37,938 nt of DNA, taken from the sequence record SRR22947725_6578, one strand, 5' to 3'. Below, piece after piece: positions 2,790 through 18,427 of this stretch. The notes under the pieces were generated by a model. That model had not been told where the DNA came from, ran no database searches, and was given only the letters and a program-made list of their open reading frames with translations. The stretch's first letter is position 1, and every line of letters starts with the position of its first letter. A program made the translations under genes and the position numbers.

Positions 2790-4562
2790 TCAGCGCTTGC
2801 GCTTCATTCTCAGGTAGACCCCAAACGGGAGCAGAACCAGCAGCGTTAGCAAACCCAGCAAAACAGCGGGACCAAGACGATCTCGCAGCAAGTTCACAAG
2901 GAGCTGCGTGCTTCTGGTATAGCCCGCGGGTAATGGCTGAACCTGATTTTCAACTTCGAACACCTCGTAAGCTGCGAGCATTGCCTGCAGCCGGCCAGGG
3001 TCTTGGCTCGAAAGGTCCAAGGTCTCCCCTGGGTCCTGCACAATGTTAAATAGTCGCCATTGCCCGTCACCGAGCGGCGGCAGGTTGCGCACCAGTTTAA
3101 AATCGCCTCTGAACAGTGCCCCTTGTCCGGTCAACTCATAGCCAATGGCATCGTTTTCGCCGTAGACGCGATCAACCGTTCCCATTACCAAGGGCGTTAG
3201 GTCGCGTCCGGTCATTGGCAGCACGGGACGGCCGCCATAACGCGCCTCAGGCGACGCAACGTTCGCCAACGCTAAAATGGTTGCCGCAATATCGGTTGCC
3301 CAAGCAAACGCATCCGTTTGCTTGGGGATATTACCCAGCGGCTGACCCGAGACAATCAAGGGCACGCGCAAGCCGCCTTCACCGGTATAGAACTTATAAA
3401 AAGCCAGCGGACTGGCCACAGCGCTGGTAAATCCTGGCCCAATGGAGCTGAAGCTGCCCTTTAAACCGAGGGTTTCATAATCTGTCGAGTAGCCCATGTT
3501 GGCCGTCATCAAACTGTTTGATCCCGATAAGGGATCAACCGGACCTGACCCCTCCGCGCCATTATCAGAGGTAAAAACGAAAATCGTATTATCGAGCGCC
3601 CCTTGCGCCTGCAAATACGTCATTAATCGGCCAATGTTGTCATCCATCGCTTCGATCATGCCGGCATAAACGGCCATGCGCTTGGATTCATATTGTTTAC
3701 GCGCATCCGACAAAGCGTCCCAATCCCCCGTCGTATCCATTCGCGCCATGGGCACTTTGCCCGGTAACAGACCGACCTCGACCGCGCGCGTCAACCGATC
3801 CTCCCGCAGCGCATCCCAGCCCGCATCGTAAACGCCTAGGTACCGGTCGATGTATTCCTGGGGCGCCTGCACCGGCAGATGCACCGCCTGAAACGGGACA
3901 TAAGCAAAAAAGGGTTTGCCGTCTGCTAGGTTACTGTCGATGAACTCAATGGTTTTATCGATCAGAAAGCGGGATGAATAAAAATCCTCCGGGAGGTCAA
4001 AGCGCTCGCCATCGGCAAACCAGTTTGCGGCATCATAGATCGGCAGGTACGGTCTTTGTTCCCAATTATCGGCGCCCGAGTCCATGAGTGCGACCGTCCG
4101 CTCAAAACCGCGGCGGCTAGGCAGTTTATTAGGCTCGGAACCCAGATGCCATTTGCCGGCCATATAGGTGTGATAGCCAGCGCCCTCTAACAGCGTTGCA
4201 ATCGTTACAACGTTGTCCCCTAACACGCCTTGATAGTTCTCAACCAATTTCTGCTCGGCGGATAGCATCTCGGGAATGTTCGGTACCCCAGCAAGGTGGT
4301 TGCTGACACCCGTTAGCAACATCGCGCGCGCTGGCGCGCAATTGGCTGCCGTGTGGTAATTGCTGAACCGAATACCGGTGTCGGCAAGCGCTTGGAGGGT
4401 CGGCGTATTGACCTCACTCCCATAAGGGGCAATGTCTGTATAGCCTAGATCATCCGCTAGCAGAAAAACGATATTGGGTCGACGCGGGACCTCCGCCGCC
4501 ACGAGCACATTAATCGATGAGACGATGACCAGCGCTAAAAGAATGCGCGCGTAACACATCAT
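2790..4562 (-). CDS. Arylsulfatase (Cys-type formylglycine sulfatase) with signal peptide and C-terminal transmembrane helix
   Basis: Motifs PNIVFLLADDLG, CAPARAMLLTG (CxPxR), GKWHLG, SDNG and DPGET. Start placed at ATG 4562, which overlaps the upstream stop (ATGA). Hydrophobic tail LGPAVLLGLLTLLVLLPFGVYL is followed by RMKRKR. Confidence 0.93.
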   Translation of the reverse strand: MMCYARILLALVIVSSINVLVAAEVPRRPNIVFLLADDLGYTDIAPYGSEVNTPTLQALADTGIRFSNYHTAANCAPARAMLLTGVSNHLAGVPNIPEMLSAEQKLVENYQGVLGDNVVTIATLLEGAGYHTYMAGKWHLGSEPNKLPSRRGFERTVALMDSGADNWEQRPYLPIYDAANWFADGERFDLPEDFYSSRFLIDKTIEFIDSNLADGKPFFAYVPFQAVHLPVQAPQEYIDRYLGVYDAGWDALREDRLTRAVEVGLLPGKVPMARMDTTGDWDALSDARKQYESKRMAVYAGMIEAMDDNIGRLMTYLQAQGALDNTIFVFTSDNGAEGSGPVDPLSGSNSLMTANMGYSTDYETLGLKGSFSSIGPGFTSAVASPLAFYKFYTGEGGLRVPLIVSGQPLGNIPKQTDAFAWATDIAATILALANVASPEARYGGRPVLPMTGRDLTPLVMGTVDRVYGENDAIGYELTGQGALFRGDFKLVRNLPPLGDGQWRLFNIVQDPGETLDLSSQDPGRLQAMLAAYEVFEVENQVQPLPAGYTRSTQLLVNLLRDRLGPAVLLGLLTLLVLLPFGVYLRMKRKR

Positions 4563-4954
4563 CTGTTGTCTCGATCCGGCAGCCATCGCGAGGCCGTTAA
4601 CAACACCAGCGCGATCACAATCTCAAACCCGATGACCTGAACCGGCAACGCCGCGCCATGGAGCACCCATGCGATCAGTCGGCCGCTGGCCGCGATCAAG
4701 AGCAGCATAACCCCCGGGTAATACCAAGCGCGCTGACCCGTTACCAGCGCAATGAGCGTGCTGATTCCCAAGACCAGAAAGAACGCGGCCAGATCACCAA
4801 CCTGCGTACTCAGGCCCAATCCCGTTTCGAGGCTAAGCCCCAAGCTCGGCGCAATGCCGGCAGGGTCCAGCAACCAACGCAACCCCATAACAATAAACAG
4901 CACGGCCGGCACGCCAACCATCCCTGTCAGAATTCCTCGACCCAAACGCCTCAT
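4559..4954 (-). CDS. Small four-helix membrane protein (DUF4345-like)
   Basis: Four hydrophobic segments with GLRWLLDP, GDLAAFF and GRLIAW motifs. GGAG RBS precedes ATG 4954 (ORF track starts at 4975). Stop overlaps the sulfatase start. Confidence 0.75.
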   Translation of the reverse strand: MRRLGRGILTGMVGVPAVLFIVMGLRWLLDPAGIAPSLGLSLETGLGLSTQVGDLAAFFLVLGISTLIALVTGQRAWYYPGVMLLLIAASGRLIAWVLHGAALPVQVIGFEIVIALVLLTASRWLPDRDNR

Positions 4955-5121
4955 AGCCCACTCCGTTGTGCTCATAAAAATGCCATCGCCTGCGCAGCTG
5001 CCCGACCCGCGGTCTGGCCCAGGCCGGTAACTCGCCCCTTTCCATCCTCAACGACGGTCTGGTTAACGAACACATTCCCAATCGCTTTTACAGGATCGCC
5101 TCTTGCTGAATCTTAAATGAC

Positions 5122-8154: not shown

Positions 8155-8805
8155 TTACAAACTCAATGATTTTGCGAGCGCCAAAACCTCCGAGGCGTCC
8201 ACTCTTTGCGCATAAGACGCCAAAAATAGCTTGCCTTGAATGGTCATAGACGCATCCAAAATAAAGATTCCGGGGTACGGGATGCCGTAGTGATCATCCC
8301 CCGGCGCATAGTCCACGTTCAAAATTCTCAGGGCCTTGACACTTTGCGCCGCCACGTCCGAGAGCATCGGATACGCAATCCCATTGGCCTCAATAAACGC
8401 AGCTTGCAATACCGGCGAATCATAGGTCAGCGCGATGATCGAAAACCCAGCGCGTTCAAAATCAGTCCGCATCTGCTGCAGCTGCACGAGCTGCTTTTGG
8501 CAATAGGGTCACCAGTCGACAGAACGAACCGCGATGAAGATCATCCCCTTGTCGCCCACCAACCGACTGACATCCGTGACCGGCATTGCGTTTAAGCGCG
8601 CTGATAAAGCAGGAAAGCGCGCGCCGACCGGCAAGCCCGGATCAAACGCATCACCATCCTTTGCAACAAACATATCGGAAGTCAGCTGCTGCTTCACAGC
8701 GCGCGCTAGGTTCTCGCCACCAACCCAAAGAAGCCCTGCGACCACGGTGGTCAAACCCAGACCAATTAAGGCAAGACGCTTAAAGCCCGATCCCTGCGCA
8801 CTCAT
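8155..8805 (-). CDS. Peroxiredoxin-like AhpC/TSA (redoxin) family selenoprotein with UxxC motif; Sec at codon 99 (TGA 8509-8511)
   Basis: ORFs 8509-8805 and 8155-8487 share one frame, separated only by TGA: ...FIAVRSVDW-U-PYCQKQLVQLQ... The TGA occupies the first Cys position of a thioredoxin-fold CxxC. Downstream IIALTYD, YPMLSD and PYPGIFILD are AhpC/TSA-like. The N-terminus has a hydrophobic anchor. 216 aa in total. Confidence 0.88.
8467..8508 (-). promoter_or_regulatory. Putative bacterial SECIS element
   Basis: mRNA after the UGA reads CCCUAUUGCCAAAA-GCAGCU-CGUGC-AGCUGC-AGCAGAUGCGG. A perfect 6-bp stem (8494-8478) starts 15 nt after the UGA and has a GU-containing loop. A lower UUGC/GCAG stem is possible. 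Confidence 0.65.
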
Positions 8806-9182
8806 GCGCCAACACCCGCATCCTGCGCGCCAAGCGCCTGATTAAGCTCCAGCAGATTACCCGAAGGATCTTTAAAGAAGCACTGCCAGCATACATCGGC
8901 CATGGCCGAGGGCTCTGAGACGTCAACCCCTTGGGCCGTAAGATGGGCCCGCGCAGCCTCAATATCGGTGACATCAAACGCGAAATGCTGACCCTTTGGC
9001 GCCTCAAACCCAGGCACCTCAAGCAAATGGAGCTGTTGATCTCCCATAGCAAGCCAAGCCCCCTTAAACCCCATTTCTGGGCGTGGAATCGCTTGAAACC
9101 CTAGAATCTCTGTATAAAATTTTGTGTCGCGCGCGGCATCAGTCACATTAAGCGAGATATGATGGACCTTTGATAGCTGCAA
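8802..9182 (-). CDS. VOC (glyoxalase/bleomycin resistance/dioxygenase) family protein
   Basis: Motifs HHISLNV, FYTEILGF, QLHL, HFAF and FFKDPSGNLLEL. TTG start follows AGGAGG. Stop overlaps the redoxin start (ATGA at 8805-8802). Confidence 0.92.
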   Translation of the reverse strand: MQLSKVHHISLNVTDAARDTKFYTEILGFQAIPRPEMGFKGAWLAMGDQQLHLLEVPGFEAPKGQHFAFDVTDIEAARAHLTAQGVDVSEPSAMADVCWQCFFKDPSGNLLELNQALGAQDAGVGA

Positions 9183-9259: not shown

Positions 9260-9670
9260 TTACTCGACGACGTGTAATTGAACCGGTATCCCCTCACAGA
9301 CGTCGACCGATGCCCCCGTCAGCGTCTCAATGATCTGATCGGCCAGACCATACTTTTCACGTCTGAGCACATGGTACCGTGCATGCATGGCAATCGCTTG
9401 CTGCGCTAAATAGTCAATCTTAACCCCATCGCGCAACAAGCTGATCGGCCCAGGTGCTTTTATGCCCTCAAGCCAGTTGTCCCCTTCTCCGCCATGCTCA
9501 ATCAGCGTCACGTCACCATCATCAACAATCCAGACGCGGACTTCATCAAAGCCGCCCTCCACACTCGGACGCAGTAACGTGACCACTTCACCACCCATTT
9601 CAGATGCAGCGAGAATCACCAGAAAGTACGCCGGCACGACCGCCAAAAGGATAAGAACAATCCGCTTCAT
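9260..9670 (-). CDS. Hypothetical protein with N-terminal membrane anchor; possibly split-barrel (DUF385/DUF2255-like) fold
   Basis: ATG 9670 follows GAGGG and gives MKRIVLILLAVVPAYFLVILAASE. The EVVTL...VRVWIVDDG...W...REKYG pattern suggests the fold (weak inference). The ORF-track extension to 9838 is probably not translated. Confidence 0.7.
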   Translation of the reverse strand: MKRIVLILLAVVPAYFLVILAASEMGGEVVTLLRPSVEGGFDEVRVWIVDDGDVTLIEHGGEGDNWLEGIKAPGPISLLRDGVKIDYLAQQAIAMHARYHVLRREKYGLADQIIETLTGASVDVCEGIPVQLHVVE

Positions 9671-10243
9671 AAAGACCCTCGTTTGACATTTCTTGATTAT
9701 GAATGTTTGAAGACACCGATAGGTTAAACCAATTGCCAAAGGTATGACCAGCGGATTACAAACGCTGTATAACCCGCGCTCTGCAGCACCAATTCGTTGC
9801 AAAACCCCAATTTCACGGGTCAAAACGACAGATGCCAAAAAAACGTCTGCGCCACCTTACGCCGTTGCAACGGCACAATTCATACAGGACAAATACAATC
9901 GATTGAAAAAAGATAACCGACCAGCGCCTGGCCAATCGCAATTGGGGCAGAACAAGATAGCAGATCCTAGCACCTTACCCTCGAGCATCGTTTTAAGGGG
10001 TCGCGTTAGTGGTACGGCTTAGCGCCTTGCCCCCGATTACGGCGAATGACGCAACCGCTTGTAACCGTATGCTCGGTCGCCAGCAGTCACAAAGCGGCGG
10101 GTTTAAGCCCCTGCCGGATCCATTCAGAACTCGCGCGTTATGCGATCGCTGTGACCTGATCGCACTTTTACCGCGGCTGAGGGTTAGCGAAGACGACCAA
10201 AGGTCTTTTCATTGATCAAACTGCGTACCGGATTAGATTGACG

Positions 10244-13441: not shown

Positions 13442-14764
13442 TTAGGACAAATCCCCGAAAAATCGAAATCCTGACCCGCTATTAAACGGAAAGCGAGCGG
13501 CCAGCGGCGAATCGGCTAGGCCCAGCAGTTGCCGCAACTGCTCATGAACATCTTTGGGATAAATGATGGCGCCTCTGCTTGGGTCCGCCTGAAGGCTTAC
13601 AGGGTCGATCGCAATCGCGTTTTGCCGTTCGTCGGTCAAGCCTACGACTCGGCTGCCCCAACTCGGCGCTTTTTGCATCACCATCACCGAACCAATCGGC
13701 CAGTGGTCTTTGCCTTGCTGAGAATTGTACTCGGGGGTTCGCGAGAAGTCCGAGCCCACAACAACCGTTAATCGATCGGCGTATCCCGCCGTTTCCGCCA
13801 GTGTCCAAATCAAATCAATGGACTCATTCAATAATTGGACCAGCGGTTTGTGCAAGGCATCGTGATCGTCATGGGTATCAAAGCCCCCCATCTGAACATC
13901 CGCAGCACAGGCCACGCCGGCTGCAAACGCTGAGCTTGCGACCTGAACTTGGGCTTTCAAGTTGTTGTGCGTGATCTCATCCTGTGGAAAAATCGCTTCG
14001 GCCTTGGGCAGATAGTCAGCGAAGTCTTTTAAAGGCCCCCGCGCTCGGGTTGCTTCGCTAAAGGCCCGCAGATTGGCGGCTTCGCGCGGCGCGAGCTGAC
14101 CTCGGGCCTGCAACCGTTGTAGCCTAGCTTGACGATGTTCTTCTATGAGACTCAGCTCTGCGGGTTGTCTGAAAAACACCGGGTGTCCATTTTCATAATC
14201 AGGGTTGTCTATCAGTCGGCCTTGGAGATTGGGCTCGACAATTTCAGCAATCCCCGCCGGGTCCCCTTGTAGCTTGGTGTAGCTGATTAAATTTTCAGTC
14301 GACCCAAACCCACCGAAATTGACATAGGCCATAGGCGCGGTCGGCGCATAATGCGCAGCAAACAGCGCCGTCAAGGCAGGGTAACCGGCGGCATTACGCC
14401 CGCTCCAATTGTGTAAAACACCCGTGGTGTGCGAGTTGGTTTGCAGATCAACACCGTTGATTACCAGCATCTGCTGATGGTATTTTTCTACGAACCATTC
14501 ATTATTGGCAAAGGGGGCAAACTCGATGCCGCCAACGCGCACCGGGTCCAACGTTTCAGACCACGTGGTGATCGGGCGTTCGCCCGGTTGGTTGACCTTG
14601 GGGTCGCAATAGCTGGTTACATCCCACCCCCCTTCGGCATGAATTTGCAGCAGAAGCGGTCCCTCATGACCGCCGTCGACAATGCCACGGGACAGCGCGG
14701 GGTAACTCAAAGCAGGGATAACGCCCAAGCTCGACATCGCCTTCAGTAACGTTCGTCGCTTCAT
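13442..14764 (-). CDS. DUF1501 domain protein with Tat signal
   Basis: Twin-arginine leader MKRRTLLK. Motifs GGWD...DPK, TNSH, GGFDTH, GSDFSRTP and GKDHW match DUF1501 proteins. Confidence 0.85.
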   Translation of the reverse strand: MKRRTLLKAMSSLGVIPALSYPALSRGIVDGGHEGPLLLQIHAEGGWDVTSYCDPKVNQPGERPITTWSETLDPVRVGGIEFAPFANNEWFVEKYHQQMLVINGVDLQTNSHTTGVLHNWSGRNAAGYPALTALFAAHYAPTAPMAYVNFGGFGSTENLISYTKLQGDPAGIAEIVEPNLQGRLIDNPDYENGHPVFFRQPAELSLIEEHRQARLQRLQARGQLAPREAANLRAFSEATRARGPLKDFADYLPKAEAIFPQDEITHNNLKAQVQVASSAFAAGVACAADVQMGGFDTHDDHDALHKPLVQLLNESIDLIWTLAETAGYADRLTVVVGSDFSRTPEYNSQQGKDHWPIGSVMVMQKAPSWGSRVVGLTDERQNAIAIDPVSLQADPSRGAIIYPKDVHEQLRQLLGLADSPLAARFPFNSGSGFRFFGDLS

Positions 14765-14779
14765 CGGTTTGCCTCGCGC

Positions 14780-17700
14780 TTATTCATGCAGAAACCGAAA
14801 GTCCGTCATGAAATAGGTTAGCAACGTCATCCAAACCCCCTTCATCCGTGTAGAATCTGACGTGTCGAAATTGGATGTCTGCCAATTTTGGTTGTTGCAC
14901 TGCTGAGCAGGCCACTGGTTAAGATTCGCGTTATCCAAGGTGGATCGATACGCAAAAGCTTCTTCAACTAATTCGTAGGAGTGCGCCAGTTCTGGGTCAT
15001 CTAAGGCCAGCGTTTCACCGAGCAATTGTTTGTGTAGCGCTTGCAGCTGTTGCTTGATCTTTTCATTTTGCGTGTTGGGCAGCGCGGCGGTCAGCGCCAA
15101 GCCAATTTTGACCGGGTCCGGGCCATATTGCTCGCCCGCCGCGGATAATTTAATCAGATAGTCGCCTGTCACGGTCACAGACCAGGGTATTTGGATCGAG
15201 CCGCTGCAGCTCAATTGATAATAGTCTGCCGTTTGGTGGCCACACCCATCGATCGTCGAGCCCGCCGGCAGTGCTTCCGCCTCAAAGACGGACCGACTGC
15301 CATCTGGCGCAATCACTTCAATGCGATCAATTCTCGCATTTCGATCACCGTCTGCGTCCCCCCAATCGTTTAAGAAGCTGATACTGATCGTATGCTCGCC
15401 TTGAATCAGGGACACCGCTAGATCATAGGTTCGATCAAAATCGCTATTGGGCACCGAAAACTCTCCAAGCGCGGCCGAACGGTTCATCGGACTATCGCCT
15501 ATCTCGACTTCTGAAAACAAACGCCTTTTTTCAGGCCCTTCCTCAAACTCTCGGGCCACCAGTTCGCAGGCTGTGTCCAACGCCATTTTCTCTACGATAT
15601 TGAACATCATTGCCGTCGTCGACGGCGCACGTTGAGTCACGTTACGGGAATCAATACCGCCATAAAGCACTTTATACTCTCGGCTGAGCTTGGCTGCACG
15701 CGCGTGATAATCATGTTCTGAAAAATCATCGGAACTCCAGCCCCAGTAGTAACCGGCCAAATTATAAAACTTAAGGTCAAGCTCCTCAGGCGTTAACAGC
15801 CGCCGGGTGCCAATCTCGGCCAGCTGCGGGTTTTGGTTGCCATCGGCGCCGTTGACGCGAAACCAAGGGCTGGCCATTAGCTCAATAATCAGCTCGCGGC
15901 CGTTGTAAGCAGCAGCCGAGTTCAACCCAGCCTTAAAGTCGCTGGCAAGCGTATCGATAAAGTCTTTTTGCGCCTCAAAAACCGCCAGGCGGGTTTCAAA
16001 ATCAGCATCCGTTGTGACTTCCGGGGCTTGTGCCACCTCGCTGCCCATCACGGCCGGCCACCAAAACTTTATCGCTGCGCTGGCAAACCAAGCGTCTTCA
16101 GCAATCTGCCGCCCCAACCACTGCAGCGACGACCCTTCAGGAGGCGCCTCATCAGTCATAAAACCCGGCTTGCGCATATCGCGATACCAAGTATCGCCAT
16201 CTCCATAACCCCGTTCGCGGTCAACGATCAGCAGAACTTTAACGGGTTCGTCCCCCGCTTGGTCCCCGGCCGCCGTCAGTTGGAAGCTGTATTCCCCTGC
16301 AATGCTGACGGCAAAGGGGATGGTGATGCGGCCATTGCAACCTAACGTCAAAGAGCCTTCGTTAACCCAGGGGCAACCGTGGAACAAAGTGGCTTCCTCT
16401 GCCCGGCTCTCGAAATCAATTGTGAGCGCAAAGCTTTCAGGGCCCTCAATGGTCAGCGATTTGAATTTGGCATTTCGATCACCTTGGGTATCCTCGTCAT
16501 AAAAGTCATTGATAAAGCTCAGTTCAATAAAAACGGTCCCCGCTTCGAAATCGGCCGTTACCGCAGGTAAGGTCTCGAAGTCTGTATTCGCAATATCAAA
16601 ATCGGCTGCAAGCAATAATCCACGACTAACGGGATCGCGCAGACCCTGCTTGTAGTTGTCCGGCAAAGCATCTTTGCCACCCCAGGACTCATTTAACAAC
16701 CCGTTGTCCCCATACAACTGAAAGGACCCCGCAACCGGATCGAGGATCTGATGACAGACCGTACAGGCAGGATTTCGCATTGTTGGGTTATCGCTATCTG
16801 ATAACGCGGCGGGCTCGGTTGAACGCGGGGCGGACTTTTCGATATCAACGCCTAGAAAGTGATAAAAGGTCCATCGCGCCCGCGCGCGATTCCGATTGGT
16901 CTCGGTACTCGGGTAGCGGTGTAAAAAGGCAGGCGTATTTAAAACCCCAGCGTGAGGGTACGCAATGAAATCTGAATGCCCCGTCACTAGGCTCGTTTGG
17001 AACTCGGTGTCTTCCGAGGTAAGGAACTCATCAAAAATAATTTGGCCTCGGTTTTGCCCCGGCTTGAATTGCCGGTGATCGATACAGGGCGCATCAGGAA
17101 ACTTCTGACAATAGGAGATCTGCTCAGGATCACTCAACTCGAATTCAGCGCCACCGTTTAAAAAGTCATTCACCGCGTAATTCATCATCATATAATCTGC
17201 CGTCACCACCTCTTGGTAGTTGCGGTCGTTCTCAACGATATAGGCAATTAACTCAACGGCTGAACGCGCCAAGCCCCAGCGCCAATGATCGTATTTAGGC
17301 CAGTGAAAAAACCGTTCTCCCGCCTTAGCTTGTTCAGCAATAAACTCCTGATTTCCAATTGGATAATAACCAGGACCCTCCAGTGATGATTGATCAATAG
17401 GCTGCCCCTCAAGAAAGGCATCCGTTAGCAATCGGTCATTAGCACTGCGAGCCAGGAAATCGTGAAACCCGGGGGCCTTGGTTAGCGCCCGCAAAGATGC
17501 CTTTAAAGCCGCATCGTCATCACCGTCGAGTTGGGCATATTCGGTCTCGGTTGGATTACGGCCCAGCATCAAAATGGCCGCACGCCGCAAGGTCTCGGCG
17601 CTGCTTGTGAGCCGGGTGCCCTTGAAAAAGCCGTCCGTTGCAATCGGCGTTTTGACCGTACTACCGGACAAACCCGCGTCTACCTCAACCCGCTCGACAA

Positions 17701-18427
17701 ACGATCTAAAGATCTCATATTCCGGCGCGCTCTGGGTAAACACCGCGCCACCAATGTGATTCACACCTCGAAGTTTGCTGAGCAGCAGCGCGCCATTGCC
17801 CTGGGCAATAAAGCCCCGCAAGGTTTCGTAGTTCTGCTGTGATCCGGCCTCATCGACGTACACCAGGCGCGTGCCTTTGGCGATCCCGTTTGGGTTATGA
17901 CAACTCAGGCAATTCGCCAGTAAGACGTCAGAGACCGACGACTTGAAATAGTCTTCTGCACTGACCTTTGGATTTTCTCCCGAGCCAGGGTTGGTTCCGC
18001 CCGAGGTTTCTGGCTGCAGCGCATCGAGGAGATCAATCAACGTGGTCGCATCCGTCCGCACAGCCGACCCCCCTACCGCGCCAGCCACGAGCGCTGATCC
18101 TTGAAACCCGAACAAATATCGAATAATCAGCAGGCCATCGGTGAGCGGGAGCGTTGATCCGTCGCCATCGATATCAAATGCTGCTTTACGCGAATCCAAA
18201 CGCGCAACAATCGCATCTGCCGTGGTCACCGCCGCGTCGCTGCCAAGCGCGCCGGCAACCAAAGCCGTCCCACTAAAGCCGAAGAGGTACCGAATGATTA
18301 ACAGGCCATCCGTGAGGGCTGTTGCCTGGCCATCACCATCAATATCCAAGGAGACGGACTCTGATCGGCTCGCGGCAGGCATCAAACTCAATGCAAGACC
18401 GAGCAATATGATCGACAGAATCTTCAT
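14780..18427 (-). CDS. Large secreted protein: dockerin/EF-hand-like repeats, two CxxCH haem motifs, DUF1588/1592-like core, two CBM60-like modules
   Basis: 1215 aa with a Sec signal. Two copies of DIDGDG...LTDGLLIIRYLFGF (aa ~27-134). CLSCH at 17897-17911 and CTVCH at 16751-16765. HAGVLNTPAFL..YP...NRNRARA core. Two SF(I/L)ND...GDRNA modules. Ends DFRFLHE. Confidence 0.8.
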   Translation of the reverse strand: MKILSIILLGLALSLMPAASRSESVSLDIDGDGQATALTDGLLIIRYLFGFSGTALVAGALGSDAAVTTADAIVARLDSRKAAFDIDGDGSTLPLTDGLLIIRYLFGFQGSALVAGAVGGSAVRTDATTLIDLLDALQPETSGGTNPGSGENPKVSAEDYFKSSVSDVLLANCLSCHNPNGIAKGTRLVYVDEAGSQQNYETLRGFIAQGNGALLLSKLRGVNHIGGAVFTQSAPEYEIFRSFVERVEVDAGLSGSTVKTPIATDGFFKGTRLTSSAETLRRAAILMLGRNPTETEYAQLDGDDDAALKASLRALTKAPGFHDFLARSANDRLLTDAFLEGQPIDQSSLEGPGYYPIGNQEFIAEQAKAGERFFHWPKYDHWRWGLARSAVELIAYIVENDRNYQEVVTADYMMMNYAVNDFLNGGAEFELSDPEQISYCQKFPDAPCIDHRQFKPGQNRGQIIFDEFLTSEDTEFQTSLVTGHSDFIAYPHAGVLNTPAFLHRYPSTETNRNRARARWTFYHFLGVDIEKSAPRSTEPAALSDSDNPTMRNPACTVCHQILDPVAGSFQLYGDNGLLNESWGGKDALPDNYKQGLRDPVSRGLLLAADFDIANTDFETLPAVTADFEAGTVFIELSFINDFYDEDTQGDRNAKFKSLTIEGPESFALTIDFESRAEEATLFHGCPWVNEGSLTLGCNGRITIPFAVSIAGEYSFQLTAAGDQAGDEPVKVLLIVDRERGYGDGDTWYRDMRKPGFMTDEAPPEGSSLQWLGRQIAEDAWFASAAIKFWWPAVMGSEVAQAPEVTTDADFETRLAVFEAQKDFIDTLASDFKAGLNSAAAYNGRELIIELMASPWFRVNGADGNQNPQLAEIGTRRLLTPEELDLKFYNLAGYYWGWSSDDFSEHDYHARAAKLSREYKVLYGGIDSRNVTQRAPSTTAMMFNIVEKMALDTACELVAREFEEGPEKRRLFSEVEIGDSPMNRSAALGEFSVPNSDFDRTYDLAVSLIQGEHTISISFLNDWGDADGDRNARIDRIEVIAPDGSRSVFEAEALPAGSTIDGCGHQTADYYQLSCSGSIQIPWSVTVTGDYLIKLSAAGEQYGPDPVKIGLALTAALPNTQNEKIKQQLQALHKQLLGETLALDDPELAHSYELVEEAFAYRSTLDNANLNQWPAQQCNNQNWQTSNFDTSDSTRMKGVWMTLLTYFMTDFRFLHE

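Follow-up and report, generated by a model that had tools for sequence, protein, structure and literature searches.

Organization of the gene

The minus strand at positions 8805-8155 carries two short open reading frames (ORFs) in one frame, separated by a TGA, and the question is whether these are two small genes, the remains of one gene, or a single gene in which the TGA is decoded as selenocysteine (Sec). Below, the window refers to the whole stretch of DNA that was analysed, 37,938 nucleotides in length.

With translation table 11 the frame gives ORFs of 98 aa (8805-8509) and 110 aa (8487-8155). When TGA is translated as U, the frame runs for 216 residues to a TAA and contains a single U, residue 99. 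The original prediction, that the two short ORFs are one frame broken by a TGA, therefore holds. On the minus strand the codons at the break are GAC TGG TGA CCC TAT TGC, encoding D-W-U-P-Y-C. The predicted location was correct in its extent and is here refined to the minus strand; a plus-strand frame over the same positions contains many stops and was rejected.

Coding had also been predicted to run on past the TGA on both sides. In agreement with this, the Pfam AhpC-TSA match at residues 61-190 spans the break and scores 68 bits, where the cut-off is 26; a further match to Redoxin reached 38.7 bits, and full-length Cys homologues of 209-219 aa can be aligned end to end with the readthrough protein. 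When the window was scanned for further TGA codons in a redox-like context, 19 sites came up, and a credible coding frame was found only at 8509-8511. We put the probability that 8805-8155 is one intact gene, encoding a Sec-decoded peroxiredoxin (Prx)-like UxxC redoxin, at roughly 0.9. The parts of the gene are listed in Table 1.

Table 1. Positions in the window of the predicted selenoprotein gene, its parts and the gene upstream
Feature	Position	Strand	Details
Complete selenoprotein gene (predicted)	8155..8805	-	ATG 8805-8803, Sec-UGA 8511-8509, TAA 8157-8155; 216 residues
N-terminal hydrophobic segment, residues 11-29	8719..8775	-	Kyte-Doolittle, AlphaFold2 helix
AhpC/TSA (peroxiredoxin-fold) domain, residues 61-190	8236..8625	-	Pfam PF00578; folded domain approximately 55-216
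Redox motif U99-P-Y-C102	8500..8511	-	UGA 8511-8509, Cys102 codon 8502-8500
Putative SECIS hairpin	8478..8494	-	5' arm 8494-8489, loop 8488-8484 (CGUGC), 3' arm 8483-8478
Codon of Pro178, in the invariant P-G that directly precedes strand 179-183	8272..8274	-	Column where peroxiredoxins have the catalytic Arg
Glyoxalase/VOC-family gene, upstream	8802..9182	-	TGA stop 8804-8802 overlaps the selenoprotein ATG (ATGA)

Conservation of the UGA codon

A search of a large protein collection yielded a set of 31 homologues among 1431 candidates. In the alignment, the U column is occupied by Cys in 30 of the 31, within the motif R-S-x-D-W-C-P-Y-C. The remaining homologue, P0028 (121 aa, 21 members), starts just after the motif and does not cover the column. 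This agrees with the claim that the TGA sits at the first Cys position of a thioredoxin-fold CxxC.

We also searched in six frames the bacterial family to which the nearest genome, G001, belongs; of the 151 genomes covered, 118 gave matches. Among the 150 match rows listed, 142 contain exactly one TGA, one contains two, five contain no stop and two contain TAG or TAA. Many of the weaker rows are paralogues, for which the one-TGA count says nothing on the TGA column. At the same-family loci that were fetched, TGA is present at the identical column in 30 out of 30, within R-S-x-[D/N/S]-W-U-P-[Y/F]-C. Eighty loci were taken from named genomes, which comprise Halieaceae, Halioglobus, Haliea, metagenome-assembled genomes (MAGs) of Pseudomonadales and Gammaproteobacteria, Azotimanducaceae, Woeseiaceae and Rariloculus; the column holds TGA in 60, TGC in 15 and TGT in 5. 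The homologues thus have either Cys or TGA at the aligned column, as the original prediction supposed.

After deduplication, the set consists of 82 distinct Sec-form and 46 Cys-form proteins. The TGA column is identical across the 82 proteins, down to approximately 35% identity, and both halves of the protein are conserved. An in-frame UGA is in this way paired with Cys in homologues, the pattern of a Sec/Cys pair.

Were the TGA a sequencing or assembly error, the true codon would be TGC or TGT. No support for such an error was found. The contigs of two DNA and two RNA-library runs, from four studies, show no difference at 8509-8511 or over the hairpin described below, and the TGA is shared by G001 and by the 60 of 80 named-genome loci. 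We consider the error refuted, with a probability close to zero, and the TGA borne out by independent sequence data. It should be noted that RNA-library contigs over the locus are not proof of transcription.

Two further observations were made in these searches. Loci L078, L097, L107 and L108 come from MAGs titled Enterobacteriaceae, Sulfurimonas, Cryomorphaceae and Klebsiella pneumoniae, yet their proteins nest among Halieaceae-type Sec forms; the contigs are therefore probably mis-binned or mislabelled. Many family genomes hold 2-4 further one-TGA matches, e.g. G001:C63:7941-8378, some of them in frames of approximately 390-500 aa. They have the look of paralogues, perhaps in part fused ones, among the Prx-like selenoproteins.

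A putative SECIS element

The hairpin that follows the UGA has a 6-bp stem and a 5-nt loop, with 20 nt between UGA and loop, and is encoded within the K-Q-L-V-Q-L-Q codons. An ungapped, codon-registered alignment of 31 TGA forms was used for comparison, and from it RNAalifold independently predicted one hairpin of 6 bp with a 5-nt loop. By pair counting, 98.9% of the hairpin cells are paired, versus 1.6-47.3% when the partner is slid. Three of the six pairs covary (GC18/CG7/UA4; GC19/AU10/GU2; CG23/UA8), among sequences that are related to one another. None of 500 shuffles matched the paired percentage, the double-change cells or the covariation score, while the count of double-change pairs (3, shuffle mean 2.9) and that of further pair types (5, against 6.7) did not rise above the shuffles. 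In two of the covarying pairs, one partner is the third base of a Gln codon and the other the first base of a Leu codon. Both are synonymous sites, which would be free as far as selection on the protein alone goes.

The decisive control is the contrast between TGA and Cys loci. All six pairs form in 60 of 60 TGA loci and in 1 of 20 Cys loci; among the remaining Cys loci, five pairs form in 4, four in 10 and three in 5. The peptide encoded at the hairpin, Q-L-V-Q-L, is mostly Q-M-I-Q-L in the Cys forms.

The bacterial SECIS (bSECIS) model, as given in a passage of a 2026 review, has a loop of 3-9 nt, a stem of 4-16 bp, a spacing of 16-37 nt and a minimum free energy (MFE) of at most -7.5 kcal/mol, with G in the first two loop positions and then G or U (PMC13188914). 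Our hairpin lies within these bounds for loop, stem and spacing, carries G then U at loop positions 2-3, and has an energy of -7.5 kcal/mol by itself, or -9.0 when folded within 24 nt of context. The hairpin is marginal in energy, here and in many relatives: of 78 distinct TGA forms, only 33 attain -7.5 when 24 nt are folded locally. Loop position 2 is G in all 78, and the next position is U in 72 and G in 6.

Folded as a single sequence, the 81 nt after the UGA have no unusual stability (z = 0.65; 141 of 200 shuffles were at least as stable). The MFE structure of these 81 nt differs from the conserved hairpin, which is visible only in the comparative alignment. Rfam at gathering thresholds gave no match in the window. 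Based on the comparative evidence, we regard it as strongly supported that 8494-8478 is a small covarying hairpin fitting the bacterial SECIS model, and thus a putative SECIS element.

These observations also bear on the possibility that a nonsense mutation split an ancestral Cys-type redoxin, leaving a pseudogene or two small genes from which fragments at most are made. The 98-aa and 110-aa ORFs of table 11 are what this would leave behind, and public gene callers do annotate such pieces. It would, however, have to account for an identical TGA column in 82 distinct proteins with conservation of both halves to approximately 35% identity, for a covarying hairpin specific to the TGA forms, for a modelled fold that requires both halves, and for Sec machinery in the nearest genome. 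We therefore consider a pseudogene or a pair of small genes highly improbable, and a Sec-decoded gene remains the preferred reading.

Selenocysteine machinery

If the TGA is decoded as Sec, the machinery should be encoded elsewhere in the genome, as the original prediction stated, and it was located in the nearest genome. G001 is 98% identical to the window over 1 kb at the locus and has the same TGA. It encodes selA (512 bits), selB (370 bits), which immediately adjoins selA, and selD (253 bits; L011, G001:C111:5298-6200). ARAGORN identified a SeC tRNA with a UCA anticodon in G001, for which the Rfam score is 45.8 bits, just below the cut-off of 47; the same program found no tRNA in the window. 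We consider it strongly supported by these matches that the full Sec insertion machinery is encoded in this near-identical genome. Since the open frame around the selD of G001 is 765 aa long, SelD may be fused there. Fusions of Ndh and SelD with a CxxC motif are described in a part of the GOS paper (PMC2398784).

SelA is present in 137 of the 151 family genomes. Cross-tabulated by hand, a redoxin match occurs in 112 of the 137 SelA-positive genomes versus 6 of the 14 SelA-negative ones, a tally that is descriptive only, because related genomes are not independent. Of the six genomes with a TGA-bearing match in which SelA was not found, five are at most 87% complete, and the sixth, G068, is 100% complete with 7% contamination. 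Within the genus of the window, SelA and a match occur together in four genomes and are both absent from two, which are 97% and 93% complete.

TGA is also used as an ordinary stop here. It terminates the adjoining VOC gene, and the genetic code is therefore standard. This speaks against readthrough of the UGA without Sec, be it by near-cognate insertion of Trp or Cys or through a reassigned code. Such readthrough gains what support it has from the fact that the inserted residue is not decidable from sequence alone; it is opposed as well by a hairpin that fits the SelB-type SECIS model and by selA, selB, selD and tRNA-Sec in G001. We judge it to be very unlikely, and suggest that the TGA at 8511-8509 is almost certainly a genuine Sec codon.

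Probable membrane anchor and fold of the predicted protein

Residues 11-29 are hydrophobic (Kyte-Doolittle mean 2.08 over 19 residues) and are directly preceded by K9 and R10. A similar N-terminal hydrophobic segment is found in 28 of 30 called homologues. Of the two exceptions, one is a call truncated at the N-terminus, and the other, the Cys form P0008, shows a lipobox-like sequence that ends in Cys. Locus L079, a Sec form, likewise has a lipobox-like sequence ending in Cys instead of the hydrophobic anchor. We read residues 11-29 as a putative uncleaved signal anchor. Three different export signals thus occur across the redoxin family, which argues that the catalytic domain would be extracytoplasmic, and we hold this to be likely. 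The N-terminal hydrophobic segment of the original prediction is accordingly found in the hydropathy profile and again as helix 5-41 of the AlphaFold2 (AF2) model, and placement at the membrane or in the periplasm would follow from it.

The AF2 model, built from a 32-row alignment, has a mean pLDDT of 94.5. Helix 5-41 is followed by a thioredoxin/peroxiredoxin-fold domain, with the UxxC motif at the start of helix 100-111. VIA-align gave a Z of 21.5 to Bcp4 (3hjp; rmsd 2.6, 156 of 158 residues aligned) and a Z of approximately 21 to BcpB and AhpE, and all 50 of the 50 matches listed are peroxiredoxins. Foldseek (E = 1.8e-11, TM 0.86 on target) likewise returned peroxidases as the top structural matches. 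According to the model, the readthrough domain has a peroxiredoxin fold.

The active site is of a different kind. In a profile alignment with the Aeropyrum Prx, residues P43, T47, C50 and R126 correspond to S95, U99, C102 and P178. Sec99 occupies the thioredoxin-type N-terminal position of UxxC, and Cys102 falls in the peroxidatic column. Of the PxxxTxxC motif the Cys column alone is kept (C102), with Ser95 in place of Pro and Sec99 in place of Thr. The catalytic Arg before the strand 'RGxFIID', R126 in the Aeropyrum Prx, is replaced by Pro178, and this column is invariant in the homologue alignment. In the model, Pro178 before strand 179-183, the motif at the helix N-terminus and the anchor are all present. 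The description peroxiredoxin-like in the original prediction therefore stands for the fold (Z 21.5) and fails for the active site, which has UxxC and Pro and lacks the Thr and Arg of peroxiredoxins. With a Prx fold and no Prx active site, 'Prx-like thiol:disulfide oxidoreductase' is the more accurate name.

None of the NCBIfam models reaches its cut-off for the readthrough protein. The SelL-related model NF040769 gave 28.4 bits against a cut-off of 120, ResA 22.3 against 170 and StoA 19.6 against 210. Weak profile matches were obtained to ResA (36.8 bits) and TlpA (21.6 bits).

Proposed mechanism

We propose the following scheme. SelB-GTP and Sec-tRNA(Sec) would bind the hairpin at 8494-8478 as the ribosome reaches the UGA, leading to the insertion of Sec99. 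The N-terminal segment would serve as a signal anchor, so that the peroxiredoxin-fold domain faces the periplasm. The selenolate of Sec99 may then attack an oxidised substrate, which could be a disulfide or a sulfenate and perhaps a peroxide, and Cys102 would resolve the intermediate with formation of an intramolecular selenenylsulfide. A DsbD-type membrane reductase would re-reduce the enzyme. A DsbD_TM protein is present in G001, and a route for the reductant therefore exists. The decoding step of this scheme is strongly supported, whereas location and chemistry are what we infer.

The same selenoprotein could instead reduce peroxides and so protect the envelope of an aerobic marine bacterium. 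In that case H2O2 or organic hydroperoxides would oxidise Sec99 to a selenenic acid, as in glutathione peroxidase (GPx), with Cys102 as the resolving residue. In GPx, the place of the catalytic Sec in the fold is that of the first Cys in CxxC, and this agrees with a peroxidase, as do the superposition of the whole domain on peroxiredoxins (Z 21.5, rmsd 2.6, 156 residues; 50 of the 50 matches listed), the peroxidases at the top of the Foldseek search and AhpC/TSA as the best Pfam family. Yet Sec99 and Pro178 stand where peroxiredoxins have Thr and Arg, Ser95 stands in place of the motif Pro, the motif is a thioredoxin-type UxxC with a Pro before strand 3, and no match to a GPx family was seen in Pfam or NCBIfam. 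Passages of two papers class such proteins as thiol:disulfide oxidoreductases (PMC1088965, PMC13188914). We find a peroxidase role possible but doubtful, and lean slightly towards a disulfide or sulfenate reductase.

Evolution of the Sec and Cys forms

A quick maximum-likelihood tree of 128 rows was computed with the key column masked; it has a midpoint root only and came with long-branch warnings. On this tree the Sec/Cys label changes six times, with at least four changes forced by well-supported branches, and none of 500 shuffles got down to this number. On either side of the midpoint root the state is Sec, and the hairpin is the same. Nested within are the Cys forms, which make up a clade of 36 (support 100) plus five small groups. 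One Cys form, L061, has a perfect hairpin, and its sister Cys forms L077 and L070 form four of the six pairs. The nested Cys forms together with the relic hairpin of L061 suggest repeated replacement of Sec by Cys, in a sample where the called proteins are Cys by construction and L020-L049 were picked as best hits to a Sec-form query.

Joining these lines, we tentatively speculate that the gene represents an unrecognised subfamily of extracytoplasmic Prx-like selenoproteins, near-universal in Halieaceae and allied marine Gammaproteobacteria. Sec and a minimal SECIS within Q-L-V-Q-L would be ancestral, Cys would have replaced Sec at least 4-6 separate times with later decay of the hairpin, and a periplasmic selenol would defend the envelope of these aerobes. 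If this is true, the direction from Sec to Cys opposes the Cys-to-Sec trend reported for thiol oxidoreductase families, and the subfamily, for lack of a curated model, would be overlooked in practically every annotation of these genomes.

The loci form a natural series for the study of SECIS evolution and of Sec/Cys exchange, from TGA with an intact hairpin, through Cys with a relic hairpin, to Cys with decayed hairpins. The protein would also be a tractable example of a selenoenzyme outside the cytoplasm. What is known of Sec decoding is unchanged by this gene.

Genomic neighbourhood

The VOC gene and the selenoprotein gene are probably co-transcribed in the window. On a shared mRNA, a terminating UGA (8804-8802) and a Sec-decoded UGA would lie approximately 300 nt apart. 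The pairing of the two genes is not conserved, being found in 7 of 81 loci. Across the 81 loci no conserved neighbourhood was found that could serve as a functional clue; the largest cluster, an SDR, occurs in 16.

An antisense ORF of 119 aa (8236-8595, plus strand) overlaps the gene, and similar antisense ORFs are present in 46 of the 81 loci. Rather than a gene, it most likely reflects the conservation of the coding strand opposite.

Several other genes of the window may be mentioned. The ORFs at 9260-9838 (192 aa) and 4559-4975 (138 aa), both on the minus strand, are without a Pfam match, and the 192-aa ORF recurs upstream of the selenoprotein gene in eight loci. The minus strand at 1305-2687 encodes a 460-aa protein in which the DsbA-like domain is confined to residues 258-448, the N-terminal half being without a Pfam match; the gene adjoins a sulfatase (2790-4586). 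At 13442-18427, also on the minus strand, a DUF1501 protein adjoins a 1215-aa protein with PSCyt3/DUF1588 and CBM60 matches.

Annotation in public databases

The original prediction held that genes of this type are mis-annotated as split genes, and public gene calls do break the gene at the TGA. Forty-eight short database matches (at most 117 aa) were found. In 14 of these the last residue is the very Trp that precedes the TGA; they are mostly 98 aa long and in some cases named 'hypothetical protein'. Another 11 start at a Met four residues past the TGA, and approximately 17 more C-terminal pieces, counted by eye, start further on. In public annotation, many entries named 'hypothetical protein' (98 aa) or 'redoxin' (approximately 105-117 aa) are thus halves of one gene. 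With split gene calls and no NCBIfam model at cut-off, the selenoproteome of widespread coastal marine bacteria is therefore under-counted.

Judged from sequence comparison, we regard this as a genuine selenoprotein gene, widely conserved and widely mis-annotated. A type of selenoprotein that was predicted approximately 20 years ago is still routinely split in two by gene-calling software.

Comparison with known systems

Among the structural matches listed are BCP/PrxQ and AhpE (3hjp, 5epf, 1xxu), on which the model superposes almost completely (Z 21.0-21.5, 150-156 residues, rmsd 1.9-2.6). Sequence identity to these is 17-23%, and their active-site Pro, Thr and Arg are not conserved in our protein. 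They are soluble cytoplasmic proteins without an N-terminal anchor.

The Sec-containing peroxiredoxin with a TxxU motif belongs to the same Pfam family, has the same fold and is also a selenoprotein. In that enzyme Sec replaces the peroxidatic Cys, according to passages of two papers (PMC2398784, PMC1088965). Here Sec is located three residues earlier, at the Thr position, the peroxidatic column is Cys102, and the catalytic Arg is absent.

ResA, TlpA and CcmG have a membrane-anchored or lipoprotein extracytoplasmic thioredoxin-fold domain, as the predicted protein probably does too, and share with it a motif of the W-C-x-x-C type and a Pro before strand 3. The scaffold here is closer to that of peroxiredoxins, Sec replaces the first Cys, and the ResA model gives 22.3 of the 170 bits of its cut-off. 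In the neighbourhood of the 81 loci, we observed no connection with genes for cytochrome c maturation.

Within the searchable literature, we found no paper that combines Halieaceae and selenocysteine; the supplementary sequences of the GOS paper may include members of the subfamily. Among the titles listed in a search for periplasmic UxxC thiol-disulfide oxidoreductase selenoproteins, there were general reviews and unrelated work only.

Prx-like protein selenoproteins with UxxC in place of TxxU were reported from the Sargasso Sea in 2005, as described in a passage of that paper (PMC1088965). Table 2 of the 2008 GOS paper lists 'Prx-like 1' under pfam00578 with a UxxC motif, 225 selenoproteins and 2,740 Cys homologs (PMC2398784). 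The 2026 review has, in one of its passages, a Prx-like thiol:disulfide oxidoreductase of PF00578 with UxxC/UxxU, predicted with high confidence (PMC13188914). The probable membrane anchor and periplasmic location and the Halieaceae set our protein apart from these accounts, being absent from the passages concerned (PMC1088965, PMC2398784, PMC13188914), and the words 'periplasm', 'Halieaceae' and 'membrane-anchored' have 0 occurrences in the 2026 review (PMC13188914). In other respects the likeness to the Prx-like 1 class, as far as these passages describe it, is close: a PF00578 domain, UxxC for TxxU, marine bacteria as hosts, a large number of homologues with Cys, and a bacterial SECIS that closely follows the UGA. 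Both features by which the class is defined, pfam00578 and UxxC, are found in the readthrough protein. The gene thus belongs to the Prx-like UxxC class predicted since 2005, matched to it by the criteria of the class and not by a reference protein.
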